A stretch of DNA of 64,000 nt, from contig CAVWVQ010000003.1 of NCBI GenBank assembly GCA_963758525.1, forward strand, positions 4,064,001 to 4,128,000, read 5' to 3'. Below the pieces are notes generated by a model. That model did not search any database. It had not been told where the DNA came from and saw only the letters and a list, made by a program, of their open reading frames with translations. How positions within the stretch are numbered: the stretch's first letter is position 1; the number at the start of each line of letters is the position of its first letter. Shown piece by piece: positions 13,582-49,366 of the stretch. Source of the DNA: an uncultured Phycisphaerales bacterium (GTDB lineage: Bacteria > Planctomycetota > Phycisphaerae > Tepidisphaerales > Tepidisphaeraceae). Made by a program: the position numbers and the translations under genes.

Positions 13582-15312
13582 ATGAAATCGTCGGATGCAG
13601 AGGGCGAATCCCCAGCGGGGGATTCAGGCAAGGAAGCCGGTGAGTCTGGCGGTCTGGACTTCGTCCGGCGGATCGTCACGGAAGATCTGAAGACCGGAAA
13701 GTGGGGGGGGCGAGTGGCGACGCGATTTCCGCCGGAGCCGAACGGGTATTTGCACATCGGGCATGCCAAGTCGATCTGTCTGAACTTTGGAATTGCCAAC
13801 GAGTTCGGCGGAACGTGCAACCTCCGCTATGACGACACCAACCCAGCCAGGGAAGAAGATGAATACGTCCGGTCCATCGACGACGACGTTCGCTGGCTTG
13901 GCTTCAACTGGGCAGGGAAGTATTACGCGTCAGATTATTTCGACCAGATGTACGACTGGGCGATGCAGCTTGTGAAAGCGGGCAAGGCGTATGTCGAGGA
14001 ATTGACCGCCGATCAGATCCGCGAATATCGCGGGACGCTGACAGCGCCGGGAAAGCCCAGCCCGTATCGCGATCGGCCGGTGGCGGACAATGTGCAACTG
14101 TTCGAGCGGATGCGCAAGGGAGAATTTCCCGACGGATCGAAGGTGCTGCGGGCCAAGATCGACATGGCTTCGCCCAACCTCAACCTGCGCGATCCGGTCA
14201 TGTATCGCATTCTGCATCAGCCGCATCACAATACCGGCGACAAGTGGTGCATCTATCCGATGTACGATTGGGCGCACGGCCTGGAAGACTCCATCGAGCA
14301 GATCACCCATTCCATCTGCACGCTAGAGTTCGAGAATCACCGTCCGCTCTACGACTGGTTTATCGATCAGCTTGGCATCCATCATCCGCAGCAGATCGAG
14401 TTCGCCCGGCTGAACCTGACCTACACGATGCTCAGCAAGCGCAAGCTGCTGGAGCTGGTGAAAGCCGGAACGGTCAGCGGCTGGGACGATCCGCGCATGC
14501 CGACGATCAGCGGCTTCCGCCGCCGAGGCTACACGCCCGAGGCGATCCGCGCCTTCTGCAAGCACATCGGCGTCAACAAGTTCAACAGCGCCGTTGAAAT
14601 CGGCATGCTGGAGAATTTTCTCCGCGAGGATTTGAACAAACGCGCAATGCGCGTGATGGGCGTGCTGCGTCCATTGAAGCTTGTGATTGACAATTATCCG
14701 CAAGATCAGGTGGAAGAGCTCGATGCGGTGAACAATCCCGAAGACCCCGCCGCCGGTTCGCGCAAGGTGCCATTTTCACGCGTGCTTTACATCGAACACG
14801 ATGATTTCCGCGAGACGCCGCCGCCGAAATTTTTCCGGCTGACGATTGGCAAGGAAGTTCGGCTGCGCTACGGCTATTTTGTCACCGCCGTGAGCGTCGT
14901 GAAGGATCCAAAGAGCGGCGAAGTTCTGGAAGTGCACTGCACTTACGATCCGAAAACGCGCGGCGGAGATTCACCCGACGGACGCAAGGTGAAGGGGACG
15001 ATTCACTGGGTTTCCGCTGGTCAGGCCATCGACGCCGAGGTTCGACTCTACGATCATCTCTTCACCAAACCCGATCCCGAAGACCTCGCTCCCGGCGAAG
15101 ATTGGACAGCCAATCTCAATCCCAAATCCCTGGAAGTATTGCCCGCTGCGAAACTCGAGCCAAGCGTGAAGTCCGCGACAGCGGGTACGAGCTTTCAGTT
15201 CGAGCGAATGGGTTACTTTTGCGTCGACAAAGAGAGCACTCCGCAGCATCTGGTGTTCAATCGTTCGGTTTCGCTGCGCGATTCGTGGGCGAAGATGGAG
15301 AAGGGGAAGTAG
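13582..15312 (+). CDS. glnS: Glutamine--tRNA ligase
   Basis: [33 protein letters not shown] and FQFER.GYF motifs; exact start uncertain (13513 or 13582). Confidence 0.96.
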
Positions 15313-15568
15313 GGGAAGGAAGGGACGGTAGGGAAGGAAGGCACGCAGGGGAGGAAAGGCACGAAGGCACGGGGGGGAAGGAAGGCACGAAGGCACGGAG
15401 GCACGAAGGGAAGGACGCGGCTGAGGCCGCGAGATTGGCGGTTTGTTTGTAACGGTTCGTCATCTGACGTAATGCTTTTCAACGTGCGCATTGCACCAAC
15501 TCCGCCGCGCCAGCGTCCTCCCCTTCGTGCCTTCGTGCCTTCGTGCCTACGTGCCTACGTGCCTTCCT
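15304..15568. repeat. Periodic 8-mer (GGCACGAA) inverted-arm element plus 9-mer GGGAAGxAx repeats between convergent glnS and gltX
   Basis: ggcacgaaggcacggaggcacgaaggg at about 15384-15410, versus cccttcgtgccttcgtgccttcgtgcctacgtgcc at about 15521-15564. Confidence 0.8.
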
Positions 15569-17204
15569 GCGCTCCAGCCTTCTCCGCACATCGATCGATC
15601 CGCGCAAGCGTCGCCGACTTCCCGAGGAATTCGAGGGTTTCGAAGATGGGGGGGCTGACGGTGTTGCCGGCAATGGCGACGCGGATCGGCTGGGCGACTT
15701 TGCCGAGGCCGAGTTTTGCTTCGGCGCAGTAGGCTTTCACTGCCACCTCGATCTGGTCATGGGTCCAATTGTTGATTGCCGCGAGTATGTCCCGAACGTC
15801 GCGCAGCGCGTTCAGGCCTTGCGCATCGTTCTTCAGGAGCACCTTCGCGACGGCGTCGGGATCGAATTCGATTTGATCGTCCGGTACGAAGAAAAACCGT
15901 GTGAGATGATCGACCTCGCCAAGCGTGTGAAACCCCTTCTTCATCGTGATCAACTTCCCCAGGGCTTGATCATCAGCTCGATTCAACGGGGAATCGGGAT
16001 TCACACTGAGATAATCGCGCATCGCTGCGACGAGCCGATCGATCGACGCTGCGGCACAGGCTTCGGTGTTGAACGCGAGGAGCTTGTCGCGGGCGAACTT
16101 CGCGTTGCCGCGGTTGATACCCTCGATGGTGAAGAGGGAGATCAGTTCGTCGATGCTCATGCGCTCGCGGTCGCCGCCGGGGCTCCAGCCGAGGAGGGCG
16201 AGAAAGTTCAACAGGGCCTCGGGGAGATAGCCTTTCTTGCGAAAGTCGTGAACGAGGATCTCCGGAAGATCAGTTTCCTTCAGCCCAACGACGCGCATGA
16301 CCGCGGCTTGCTCGGTGAGGTCCAGTTGCTGCTGATTGTCCGCGAGCCACGCGGCGATTCGCAACGAGGCAATGCCAGCGGCCGCGGCCAGTTTGTCCGC
16401 GGTGCCGCCGGCGCTCTTAATCCATTGCTGGGCAGCTGCGCGAATCGCTTTGTCGCGGTCGCGCTTCCCCATCTTGCTGCCGTCCATGTTCTGAATGGTC
16501 GGCACGTGCCCATAAAGGGGCCGCGGGTAGCCGAGCGCCTCCTGCAGCGCGATGTGGTTGAACGTATTCTTTAAATGTTCCTGCCCGCGGAGGACGTGCG
16601 TCACCGCCATCTCGGCGTCGTCGACGACCACGGCGAAGTGATACGTCGGCATTCCGTCGGCTTTGCGAATGACAAAATCCTGGGCTTCTTCCGGAGGGAA
16701 AACGATTTCCCTGCCGAGCACCTCATCGCGGAAGCGGTATTCTTTCACCGGCATCGCAAACCGCACAACCGCTTGGCGATTCTCGGCGCGATATTGTGCG
16801 AGCTGCTCCTGCGAAACCGGACGACGGCGATAGATAAACGATCGCTTCGCGGCCTCGGCGGCGCGACGCTCGATGTTGATCTCCTCGCTGGTTTCGAATG
16901 CTTCATACGCCAGGCCGCGCGACATCAGATCGCCGAGGATCTGGTTGTACGTCGCCAGACGTTTGGATTGCTGCACGAGCGTCGGGTTGTCCCAGTGGAG
17001 CCCGAGCCAGCGGAGGTCTTCGAGAAGCTGCTGACACGCCTGGTCCGTGCTGCGGGCAAGATCGGTGTCTTCGATGCGGAGAAGAAATGTTCCGCCGGCA
17101 TGTCGCGCCAGCAGCCAGTTGAAGAGGGCCGTGCGGGCCCCGCCGACATGGAGGTAGCCGGTGGGGGAGGGAGCGAAGCGAGTGACAAAGCGTGCGTCGG
17201 GCAT
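15555..17204 (-). CDS. gltX: Glutamate--tRNA ligase with an insertion after the KMSKS-type motif
   Basis: TRFAPSPTGYLHVGGARTA, LRIEDTD, PTYHFAVVVDD, KMGKR and NFLALLGW motifs. Confidence 0.96.
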   Translation of the reverse strand: MPDARFVTRFAPSPTGYLHVGGARTALFNWLLARHAGGTFLLRIEDTDLARSTDQACQQLLEDLRWLGLHWDNPTLVQQSKRLATYNQILGDLMSRGLAYEAFETSEEINIERRAAEAAKRSFIYRRRPVSQEQLAQYRAENRQAVVRFAMPVKEYRFRDEVLGREIVFPPEEAQDFVIRKADGMPTYHFAVVVDDAEMAVTHVLRGQEHLKNTFNHIALQEALGYPRPLYGHVPTIQNMDGSKMGKRDRDKAIRAAAQQWIKSAGGTADKLAAAAGIASLRIAAWLADNQQQLDLTEQAAVMRVVGLKETDLPEILVHDFRKKGYLPEALLNFLALLGWSPGGDRERMSIDELISLFTIEGINRGNAKFARDKLLAFNTEACAAASIDRLVAAMRDYLSVNPDSPLNRADDQALGKLITMKKGFHTLGEVDHLTRFFFVPDDQIEFDPDAVAKVLLKNDAQGLNALRDVRDILAAINNWTHDQIEVAVKAYCAEAKLGLGKVAQPIRVAIAGNTVSPPIFETLEFLGKSATLARIDRCAEKAGAQEGT

Positions 17205-25343: not shown

Positions 25344-28144
<2,801 letters not shown>

Positions 28145-28493
28145 GATCTTCCCGTGTTTGGCCCCTCCTCAGTCGCGCGGATTCTATGCGCACGCCGCAC
28201 GCTTACAAGCCAGTCATTCGTCCCACGGCCCCAGAGCGTGCCCGATTCTCCCAAAAGCCGAAGGACGCCGTTGGAATTGATCCGTCAAGCCCCTCTTATC
28301 GCAAACCCCGGGTCTCGACACCGGATGCGACCTTTTCCCAAGCGGATGCGTCCAGCCGCGCCAGCCCAAAAGAGTGATTGCCACGAAAAAACGCTAAGGA
28401 CGCGGCGCTGGCTGCGCCCGCAACCCAAAGAAACGAATCTGACCGTGGATGAACGCGGGGAAAGAGATCGAACCGCTGATAAACGCCGATGAA

Positions 28494-29898
28494 CCCAGCG
28501 CTGCCTCGCTTCGCTCGGCCGCAACCAAAACGAAGAGCCGCGAAGACGCGAAGACGCGAAGAGAGACGCGAAGGTAAGAAAATCAAAAATGCGGGATCGA
28601 AGCCCAGGGAATTGTGCCTTGGGGTTTCAGGTGCAATTGAATTGTCTTCCTTCGCGTTTGTCTTCGCGTCTTCGCGTCTTCGCGGCTCTTGATCTTTTGG
28701 CTGATCGCCTGCCCGGGAAAATATGCGCAGCGCGCGAAGATCTCAATGGGTTGTGACACGGATTGGCCAAGGCCATTGTCTCCGCAATGCGGATGACCAG
28801 GCCCGCCGCGATCAAGTGAAGAGCCAGCTTCTGAGTGTTGGCAATTCTCCGCTGCACCTTGTTCGTGCAGCCACCCTGCTGAAAACGTTTGCTTCAGCCG
28901 CAACCAAAACGAAGAGCCGCGAAGAGCCGCGAAGACGCGAAGAGAGACGCGAAGGTAAGAAAATCAAAAATGCGGGATCGAAGCCCAGGGAATTGTGCCT
29001 TGGGGTTTCAGGTGCAATTGAATTGTCTTCCTTCGCGTTTGTCTTCGCGTCTTCGCGTCTTCGCGGCTCTTGATCTTTTGGCTGATCGCCTCCCGGGAAA
29101 ATTTGCGCAGCGCGCGAAGATCTCAATGGGTTGTGACACGGATTGGCCAAGGCCATTGTCTCCGCAATGCGGATGACCAGGCCCGCCGCGATCAAGTGAA
29201 GAGCCAGCTTCTGAGTGTTGGCAATTCTCCGCTGCACCTTGTTCGTGCAGCCAGCCTGCTGAAAACGTTTGCTTCAGCCGCAACCAAAACGAAGAGCCGC
29301 GAAGACGCGAAGGCGCGAAGAGAGACGCGAAGGTAAGAAAATCAAAAATGCGGGATCGAAGCCCAGGGAATTGTGCCTTGGGGTTTCAGGTGCAATTGAA
29401 TTGTCTTCCTTCGCGTTTGTCTTCGCGTCTTCGCGTCTTCGCGGCTCTTGATCTTTTGGCTGATCGCCTGCCCGGGAAAATTTGCGCAGCGCGCGAAGAT
29501 CTCAATGGGTTGTGACACGGATTGGCCAAGGCCATTGTCTCCGCAATGCGGATGACCAGGCCCGCCGCGATCAAGTGAAGAGCCAGCTTCTGAGTGTTGG
29601 CAATTCTCCGCTGCACCTTGTTCGTGCAGCCACCCTGCTGAAAACGTTTGCTTCAGCCGCAACCAAAACGAAGAGCCGCGAAGACGCGAAGACGCGAAGA
29701 GAGACGCGAAGGTAAGAAAATCAAAAATGCGGGATCGAAGCCCAGGGAATTGTGCCTTTGGGGTTTCAGGTGCAATTGAATTGTCTTCCTTCGCGTTTGT
29801 CTTCGCGTCTTCGCGTCTTCGCGGCTCTTGATCTTTTGGCTGATCGCCTGCCCGGGAAAATTTGCGCAGCGCGCGAAGATCTCAATGGGTTGTGACAC
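28494..29898. repeat. Tandem array A-B-A-B-A-B-A, period 379-380 bp; A carries a 42-bp inverted repeat built from GACGCGAA units
   Basis: GCAACCAAAA recurs at 28521, 28900, 29280 and 29659. First A is 28494-28759 and first B is 28760-28896. Arms 28533-28574 and 28649-28690 match at 40 of 42 positions. Confidence 0.95.
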
Positions 29899-29990
29899 AG
29901 ATTGATCAGATATTCGTACGGTGCGTTTAACGTTCACTTGCGGTTTCCCGAAGTTGATCAAGAGGCCAACGTGAAGGCCGGTTGCGGCGA
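29899..29990 (-). pseudogene. C-terminal remnant of a GxxExxY (PD-(D/E)XK-like) protein
   Basis: Translates as ATGLHVGLLINFGKPQVNVKR, the characteristic GLLINFG C-terminus; no N-terminal part is visible. Confidence 0.65.
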
Positions 29991-49100: not shown

Positions 49101-49366
49101 CCCAGCGCTGCCTCGCTTCGCTCGGCCGCAACCAAAACGAAGAGCCGCGAAGTCGCGAAGACGCGAAGAGAGACGCGAAGGTAAGAAAATCAAAAATGCG
49201 GGATCGAAGCCCAGGGAATTGTGCCTTGGGGTTTCAGGTGCAATTGAATTGTCTTCCTTCGCGTTTGTCTTCGCGTCTTCGCGTCTTCGCGGCTCTTGAT
49301 CTTTTGGCTGATCGCCTGCCCGGGAAAATTTGCGCAGCGCGCGAAGATCTCAATGGGTTGTGACAC
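49101..49366. mobile_element. Solo 266-bp copy of array element A (MITE-like)
   Basis: Near-identical to 28494-28759, with the same ends (CCCAGCGCTG...GGGTTGTGACAC) and the same orientation. Confidence 0.85.

Follow-up and report, generated by a model that had tools for sequence, protein, structure and literature searches.

A tandem hairpin array in a Tepidisphaeraceae genome, very probably built from miniatures of an unclassified insertion-sequence family with a predicted Rep_trans-like enzyme

Rolling-circle transposons, as treated in the part of a review drawn on here, comprise the IS91/ISCR group and the Helitrons and use HUH enzymes (PMC5714925). Rep_trans enzymes are listed in that same part only for plasmids, phages and conjugative elements (PMC5714925). 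The excerpted account of IS91 puts the origin at the end that follows the gene and adjoins the target, and the terminator at an end with a subterminal palindrome (PMC13181058). It has also been reported, in the portion of the source considered, that a diverged protein with a TBP fold and a winged helix works as a rolling-circle initiator (PMC13107129).

The window analysed here is a stretch of 64,000 nucleotides from an uncultured Phycisphaerales bacterium of the Tepidisphaeraceae. It contains a tandem array in which a hairpin-bearing unit, A, alternates with a spacer, B, as well as one solo copy of A. Very probably, A is a non-autonomous derivative, in miniature form, of an insertion-sequence (IS) family that is unclassified and carries a gene for a protein of about 520 amino acids. 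The array lies within a further element, R, which has a GxxExxY cassette. The features are given below by window position, the plus strand of the mobilisable unit being the orientation of the parent transposase gene.

28401 to 28430, plus strand: left end of host element R, which is itself inserted in a GCCACGAAA arm.
28441 to 28493, no strand assigned: nonamer arm (GATGAACGC type) of the GxxExxY cassette of R, the left half of the target; the empty form is known.
28494 to 29897, plus strand: whole mobilisable unit (left end, A1-B-A2-B-A3-B-A4, right end); its flanks are contiguous at empty paralogous sites.
28494 to 28529, plus strand: family left end, made up of CCCAGCGC, a small hairpin and GCCGCAACCAAA, identical at 35 of 36 bases to that of the gene-bearing copy L152.
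28533 to 28690, no strand assigned: filler hairpin of A1, with inverted CGCGAAGA-octamer arms (28533-28574 and 28649-28690; 40/42 match) and a 74-nt loop.
28709 to 28758, plus strand: right end of A1 (...GCGCAGCGCGCGAAGATCTCAATGGGTTGTGACA), agreeing with post-stop ends at 21-24 of the last 34 nt.
28759 to 28896, plus strand: B1, captured flank with a stop at 28817-28819; the frame matches a homologue in genome G055.
28897 to 29138, plus strand: A2, left end truncated by 24 nt.
29139 to 29276, plus strand: B2.
29277 to 29517, plus strand: A3, left end truncated.
29518 to 29655, plus strand: B3.
29656 to 29897, plus strand: A4, left end truncated, bearing the terminal right end.
29899 to 29988, minus strand: C-terminal remnant of the GxxExxY gene of R, with 18/23 aa identity (E 8e-13) to the intact gene at C3:2087927-2088271.
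49101 to 49365, plus strand: solo complete A with the same ends, directly after the stop codon of a GFO/IDH/MocA oxidoreductase gene.

Tandem Repeats Finder reports the array at 28518-29904 with a period of 380, 3.7 copies and 98% matches, which bears out the tandem repeat described in the first-pass annotation. The hairpin measured there was obtained again (42-bp arms, 40/42 match, 74-nt loop), and the stability of its fold relative to shuffles is z = -8.1. The three near-identical B units are present, each 138 nt long by the present boundaries against the 137 bp originally given. The solo A at 49101 has the ends of the array copies, and the array locus indeed lacks terminal inverted repeats, a duplicated target and a transposase. 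The boundaries of A required some adjustment. Only A1 has a complete left end, and A2-A4 begin at GCCGCAACC, 24 nt inside it. The right end extends to ...GGGTTGTG(A/G)CA and recurs in the array, finishing at 29138, 29517 and 29897; the minus strand thus opens with TG. The string C(C/T)GTG, after which each A was said to begin on that strand, is seen, but its TG belongs to the element and the target ends ATC(C/T)G.

The array is real, and an assembly artefact is very unlikely. One soil run, which may represent the source sample, supplies short-read unitigs that span the A-to-B junction (29420-29642). The B-to-A junction is tiled by such unitigs, with no single record that has at least 31 bases on both sides; the junctions are covered in this way and the number of units is that of the assembly. 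The units differ by shared variants. The neighbours of the array are a frameshifted aconitase gene on one side and an alanine dehydrogenase gene on the other. The aconitase gene (25344-28144, minus strand) is split near 27 kb, probably through a long-read error, and a kinase frame at C3:576 kb is shifted similarly.

Across the genome, A (265 nt) occurs at 13 loci in total, comprising ten singles and three arrays. The array at C3:573.7-575.7 kb has five units and the same B as the window, and the one at C3:3900 kb has a spacer other than B. A diverged relative of A forms a fourth array at C3:3464 kb. These last two tandem arrays of related miniatures span 3900151-3901449 and C3:3463921-3465035, respectively, and the unit boundary of the latter falls exactly at the left end. 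Among 60 relatives searched, full-length A is absent, and arm-length matches only were found, in 13. At C3:4150683 (minus strand), a right end is fused to the left end of another miniature, a stacked insertion at a left junction that already existed; L171 has a similar stacking.

The first-pass annotation took A for an uncharacterised non-autonomous mobile element, and its ends do connect it with a transposase-like family that is large and unannotated. Of 301 genomes of the phylum, 48 have the left-end motif, with up to 66 copies, against 0-2 per genome for reversed controls. Its stem, GCGGC/GCCGC, is found across genomes with variable loops; the left hairpin of A is no more stable than shuffles (z 0.18). 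In genome G177, the motif stands at several sites and is followed by a 518-aa gene and then by a right end that is common to gene-bearing copies and gene-less miniatures; the flanks of the gene-bearing element differ from site to site. A metagenome scan with the left hairpin of A returned at least 121 matches. Among the matches listed, 34 have at least 400 nt downstream, and the gene is carried on the same strand in 20 and on the opposite strand in none. Long copies of the kind that the first-pass annotation had suggested looking for, with matching ends and a single gene, that for the ~520-aa protein, include L152 for the left end and L291 for the right end.

The right end leads to the same family. 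In genomes of the same class, the stop codon of the gene is followed by ...GCGCACGCTGCGAAGAAATCGACGGATTGTGGCA, and the agreement with A over the last 34 nt given above (21-24 identical) is that of the post-stop ends of L291, L304, L316 and L307. A sister miniature on C2 matches post-stop ends at 29/34, and when the whole 1.8-kb L291 was compared with this genome by blastn, the best match was the right end of a sister miniature (E 0.019). A weight matrix from 13 foreign right ends gives the A end only 7.4 bits, a score reached by 1,152 of 12.9 million positions. The same ends also enclose armless, unrelated fillers: in genome G090, another filler lies between paired left and right ends at 23 of 30 loci, 22 of which are 216-219 nt long.

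The gene itself was not found in this assembly (90.9% complete) with a single query or a profile, nor by tblastn with four members (best E 0.03). It was likewise not found in two genomes of the same genus and is present in 5 of 48 genomes of the same family. Viral contigs matched neither end pattern. The exact right-end pattern had five matches in wider genome contigs, which have no upstream hairpin and were taken as chance, and a motif match in G004 is a chance occurrence inside a gene. Diverged members of the ~520-aa family (L132, L260, L263-L265, L267, L280, L297 and L302) have other end sequences, with GCCGGAACC on the left and CTCTCC...GGAGAG on the right, which suggests several subfamilies. 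In L124 (G177:C1:1208 kb), a gene-bearing copy splits a putative toxin gene, presumably of the HigB/RelE type, and could serve to locate the junction precisely.

The family has 5,502 representatives at 50% identity, annotated as “hypothetical” or “ArsR family regulator”. Thirteen members compared with Pfam and NCBIfam matched no family above cut-off, including Y2_Tnp and the other HUH families, and no PF02486 profile match was found. Comparison with PDB sequences gave nothing relevant, the ESM Atlas gave only “hypothetical” clusters and PHROGs gave winged-helix matches only. The predicted model (pLDDT 93.7 for the whole and 95.5 for residues 1-390) has a TBP-type saddle followed by a C-terminal winged helix. 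Its highest Foldseek probability, 0.96, is to RepSTK1 (4CIJ; E 1.4e-3). In structural alignment, scores are Z 6.4, rmsd 5.0 and 190 aligned residues for 4CIJ; Z 6.5, rmsd 4.7 and 178 aligned for RepDE (4CWC); and Z 8.0, rmsd 3.9 and 180 aligned for TBP. The Rep_trans scores are middling, tied with TBP and with unrelated folds.

Conservation adds to the picture. Over 97 sequences, Y322 (in YxK, with K324), R330 and E332 (LxRxE) and E247 are invariant and D20 is near-invariant, and all of them lie on predicted strands. The sole near-invariant histidine is in the winged helix. D20, YxK and LxRxE agree with motifs N', III and IV of Rep_trans proteins, following the definitions in the consulted part of the review (PMC5714925). 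Motif I is E247-x-A-x-D251, that is, ExAxD and not RxD. Judged from the model, it is likely that the gene encodes a Rep_trans-like rolling-circle transposase with a TBP fold and not an HUH enzyme. As a predicted TBP fold and Rep_trans-like motifs occur in a protein of no known family, transposition is likely to be of a rolling-circle, non-HUH kind; for the chemistry as such, which is argued from the predicted fold, the motifs and the IS91-like end layout, the balance is moderately favourable.

The insertion site of the array is defined by its empty counterparts. At six other places in the genome its two flanks join without interruption, and there they are the nonamer arm and the last GxxExxY codons; the empty target form, GCCGAT(G/A)AA-CG-CAGATT, has six occurrences. 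The intact GxxExxY gene at C3:2087927 carries a single A at the same position as the window array. That gene belongs to the copy of R at C3:2087548-2088514 (L290), which has the left end, the intact gene, both arms, the right end and the nested A. A second copy at C3:3898 kb has kept both ends and lost the gene by deletion. The right end of R is identical to that of L312 at 27 of 34 bases, and by its ends R appears to belong, like A, to the non-autonomous members of this IS family. In this genome, ends of the type seen in A thus also enclose an intact GxxExxY gene, within a sister element.

Filled and empty sites show that insertions of A are exact to one base at most and that, as in IS91, terminal inverted repeats and a duplicated target are absent. 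The dinucleotide before the junction is CG in 13 of 13 empty sites (two arms) and CA in three of four filled R sites, which shows that a base of the target is often exchanged. At its right end, A adjoins CRRAK at 10 of 13 loci, against 1.0% of positions, and an 8-10-nt periodicity marks 8 of 13 A sites compared with 23 of 400 CRRAK sites taken at random. Of 35 gene-bearing left junctions, 18 have an arm word in front of them, where the background is 5.5%, the word list having been picked after the arms had been seen and some rows coming from one genome. Under the end rule, right ends were called for 26 of 55 gene C-termini, of which 14 adjoin CRRAK and 16 YRRAK. The right ends of the G090 subfamily adjoin CTATA and not CRRAK; together with the calls of the end rule, this indicates that targeting of arms is a subfamily preference. 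The (C/T)RRAK target is common in the octamer and nonamer arms of GxxExxY cassettes, and in L277 a gene-bearing copy lies directly within the arm preceding a GxxExxY gene.

The history of the 380-bp unit can be followed through B. The earlier view of B as a captured flank agrees with its identity: at C3:575 kb, A has interrupted a gene, and B is the 3' end of that gene. B1 comprises the last codons, the stop and the 3' flank of that gene and is native there. Its first 20 codons continue the frame HGLAKAIVSA and align with GTLAKAVDSA of the G055 homologue with no indel, and the coding part has a GC3 of 17/20. In the repeat unit, the end of B is joined to position 25 of A via a microhomology of 2-5 nt, which points to local duplication and expansion. 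It appears that the unit arose at C3:575 kb, 3.5 Mb away, and was then copied into the window.

From the analogy with the layout of IS91, the right end is probably the origin end and the left end probably the termination end. As B is situated outside the probable origin end, its entry is best explained by a local tandem duplication and not by read-through. The suggestion that B is a captured flank thus holds, and the suggested rolling-circle route has indirect support from the fold, the motifs and the IS91-like layout. It is proposed that the ~520-aa enzyme acts on A in trans, and that it would nick the bottom strand at the right end, next to the target, and terminate at the hairpin of the left end. 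A 380-bp segment consisting of A minus its first 24 nt and 138 nt of flank would have been duplicated at C3:575 kb and then expanded. As the internal units have no terminator, a round started from an internal right end would continue up to the sole complete left end, and such a round would deliver L-A-B-A-B-A-B-A-R into the arm of the GxxExxY-bearing R. That A is a miniature of an IS family with a predicted Rep_trans-like enzyme, delivered as a multimer into R, is the reading that we hold to be probable, although a simple IS91-type insertion does not predict the change of G to A in three of four filled R sites, and neither a circular junction nor any activity was seen.

The array could also have reached the window by gene conversion between a resident single A and the C3:575 kb array, with no transposition of a multimer. 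The change from CG to CA at the right junction would be accounted for in this way. The single A at the identical arm position in the paralogous R (C3:2087643) is in line with such a resident copy, yet at least six empty R copies of the target make independent insertions plausible. Similarly, the left hairpin of A1 in the window has the common G where the first unit at 575 kb has A, although this variant at 575 kb may be a later conversion from the B-to-A junction. Both routes end in the same product; multimer transposition is given roughly an even chance, and conversion one that falls somewhat short of even.

A recombinase-like route is rather doubtful. A dimer would cut both strands with a stagger of 1-2 nt, and a double-stranded circle with a mismatched core would integrate. 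Junction variation is limited to one dinucleotide per end, as such a core would have it: the left end has CC or CT in 29 of 35 gene-bearing elements, with a target-like CA at C3:3920855, and the right end has CA at 12 of 13 A loci, with a target-like CG at C3:2087643. The ends, however, are dissimilar and the layout is functionally asymmetric, while Rep_trans-type motifs and a single invariant catalytic-type tyrosine favour the nicking of a single strand.

The long hairpin inside A serves as filler; it is a GxxExxY cassette with no gene. A has inverted octamer/nonamer arms like those found around the gene in such cassettes. Its first 80 nt and its right arm match the cassette at C3:275 kb, where an intact GxxExxY gene (C3:275448-275795) is enclosed by arms like those of A. 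At C2:252 kb, the same kind of ends surrounds a different, nonamer hairpin. Among 271 foreign loci examined by tblastn, only two have GxxExxY, neither within the ends, so the cargo of an intact gene is seen in this genome alone. Further structures of this kind were noted: downstream of the GxxExxY gene at C3:1855542-1855817 (minus strand), which appears frameshifted, there are tandem 3'-end repeats and a CACGAA hairpin, and at 15300-15580 of the window an octamer-arm inverted repeat (GAAGGCAC / CCTTCGTG) lies between two tRNA-synthetase genes.

This interior raises the question of whether the GxxExxY nuclease mobilises the hairpin, in the manner of REPIN/RAYT, with the outer ends being incidental. 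Four GxxExxY genes pass the cut-off in this genome, in which the Rep-like gene was not found, and many arm hairpins stand without the A-type outer ends, both here and in relatives. The boundaries of A, however, lie 39 nt and 68 nt outside the arms and are identical across the 13 loci, so the arms are not the limits of the mobile unit; moreover, the ends match elements whose sole gene is that for the ~520-aa protein, and they enclose armless fillers too. Mobilisation by the nuclease is accordingly judged improbable.

The genome also contains catalogued elements. Four near-identical IS110 copies (L016-L019) at C3:2707 kb, 3872 kb, 4129 kb and 4131 kb are each inserted in prepilin-type leader codons (GTAAAACCGTG junction). 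At C2:272843-274952 (L020), an integrase gene and an IS91-type Y2 gene lie within an attC-like repeat array. Multi-copy Y1_Tnp genes (C3:303867, C1:316102 and C3:4614154) have perfect inverted repeats (GAAGCTGTTAAGGTGACATCCATC...) at their borders, and we take them to resemble Y1 elements flanked by terminal inverted repeats. Movement of A in trans by one of these enzymes (IS110, IS91 Y2 or Y1/RAYT) would explain its recent spread in the absence of a Rep-like gene, but it is very improbable: the IS110 and IS91 copies have other ends and sit in leader codons and an attC-like array, and the Y1 genes among the matches listed have their own flanking inverted repeats, with no A end in the flanks of any listed match (23 Y1 hits in the genome). 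Least credible of all is a structured-RNA cassette, which the first-pass annotation had offered, or a long-read assembly artefact, for although the hairpin is very stable and frameshifts typical of long reads occur (aconitase), the short-read unitigs contain the junctions, the units differ by shared variants, the ends correspond to those of a transposase-bearing family and all 18 Rfam matches lie far below the gathering score.

Behind the miniature there is probably a new class of transposase. The wider proposition is that there exists a class of rolling-circle transposons with a Rep_trans/TBP-fold enzyme in place of an HUH enzyme, with thousands of unannotated members, and that its miniatures land in GxxExxY arms and ferry hairpins as well as an intact nuclease gene; the odds tilt slightly in its favour. 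If so, a family of more than 5,000 representatives now called “hypothetical” or “ArsR regulator” would be a new transposase class, and the unexplained GxxExxY repeats would have a route of mobility that is independent of the nuclease. It becomes testable whether the arm hairpins owe their spread to their own nuclease or to the A family, as its cargo and target, and A provides a ready minimal substrate of 265 nt with defined ends and target. The literature covered, with subscription journals and ISfinder outside its scope, yielded no description of the ~520-aa family or of GxxExxY arms.

As regards described systems, the first-strand Asp, YxK and LxRxE are shared with Rep_trans/MOBT proteins (PF02486; pT181 RepC/RepD and RepSTK1), and the predicted TBP saddle is consistent with theirs at middling scores. 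The predicted winged helix after the catalytic domain recalls Rep-Arvir, as far as the portion of that source extends (PMC13107129). The ~520-aa protein differs in having no PF02486 match and ExAxD as motif I, and its gene stands alone in a chromosomal insertion element of 1.7-1.8 kb and not in a plasmid or phage replicon or as the relaxase of an ICE. By profile, the family is therefore not Rep_trans.

Nor is A a classical MITE or an IS110 element. Like MITEs, it is short, gene-less and multi-copy, shares both ends with a gene-bearing element and has interchangeable filler; in contrast to them, it has no terminal inverted repeats or target duplication, and its long inverted repeat is a passenger and does not form the ends. 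IS110/IS1111 elements that target REP repeats include IS621 and ISPpu10. A dispersed repeat family as preferred target and the lack of target duplication are common to IS110/IS1111 and A, but the A family has no DEDD enzyme and the resident IS110 has other ends and another target. The arms of A match those around the gene in GxxExxY (TIGR04256) cassettes, and its nested, mosaic and tandem arrangements are similar to those of BIMEs; unlike in these GxxExxY and REP systems, the hairpin is carried by, and serves as target for, another element that has ends of its own. Integron attC sites and group II introns were considered for the ends of A and rejected, as the ends misfit the consensus that we assume for them.

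The closest likeness is to IS91/ISCR (IS91, IS801 and IS1294) and the Helitrons. According to the parts of the two sources used, these share with A the dissimilar ends, the lack of terminal inverted repeats and target duplication, and the existence of gene-less derivatives (PMC13181058, PMC5714925). They also share with its family a short target adjoining the end downstream of the gene (here CRRAK at 10/13 A loci and YRRAK at 16/26 called gene-bearing ends). For their subterminal hairpin with a target-like tip at the other end (PMC13181058, PMC5714925), the left-end stem of the family is a candidate counterpart. A thus resembles a non-autonomous IS91 or Helitron element, but from sequence comparison it would not be a member of either, since its family has no HUH enzyme. 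It is set apart from IS91 by an enzyme that is not HUH/Y2 by sequence and is predicted to combine a TBP fold with a C-terminal winged helix, and by a (C/T)RRAK target of which one base is often replaced.
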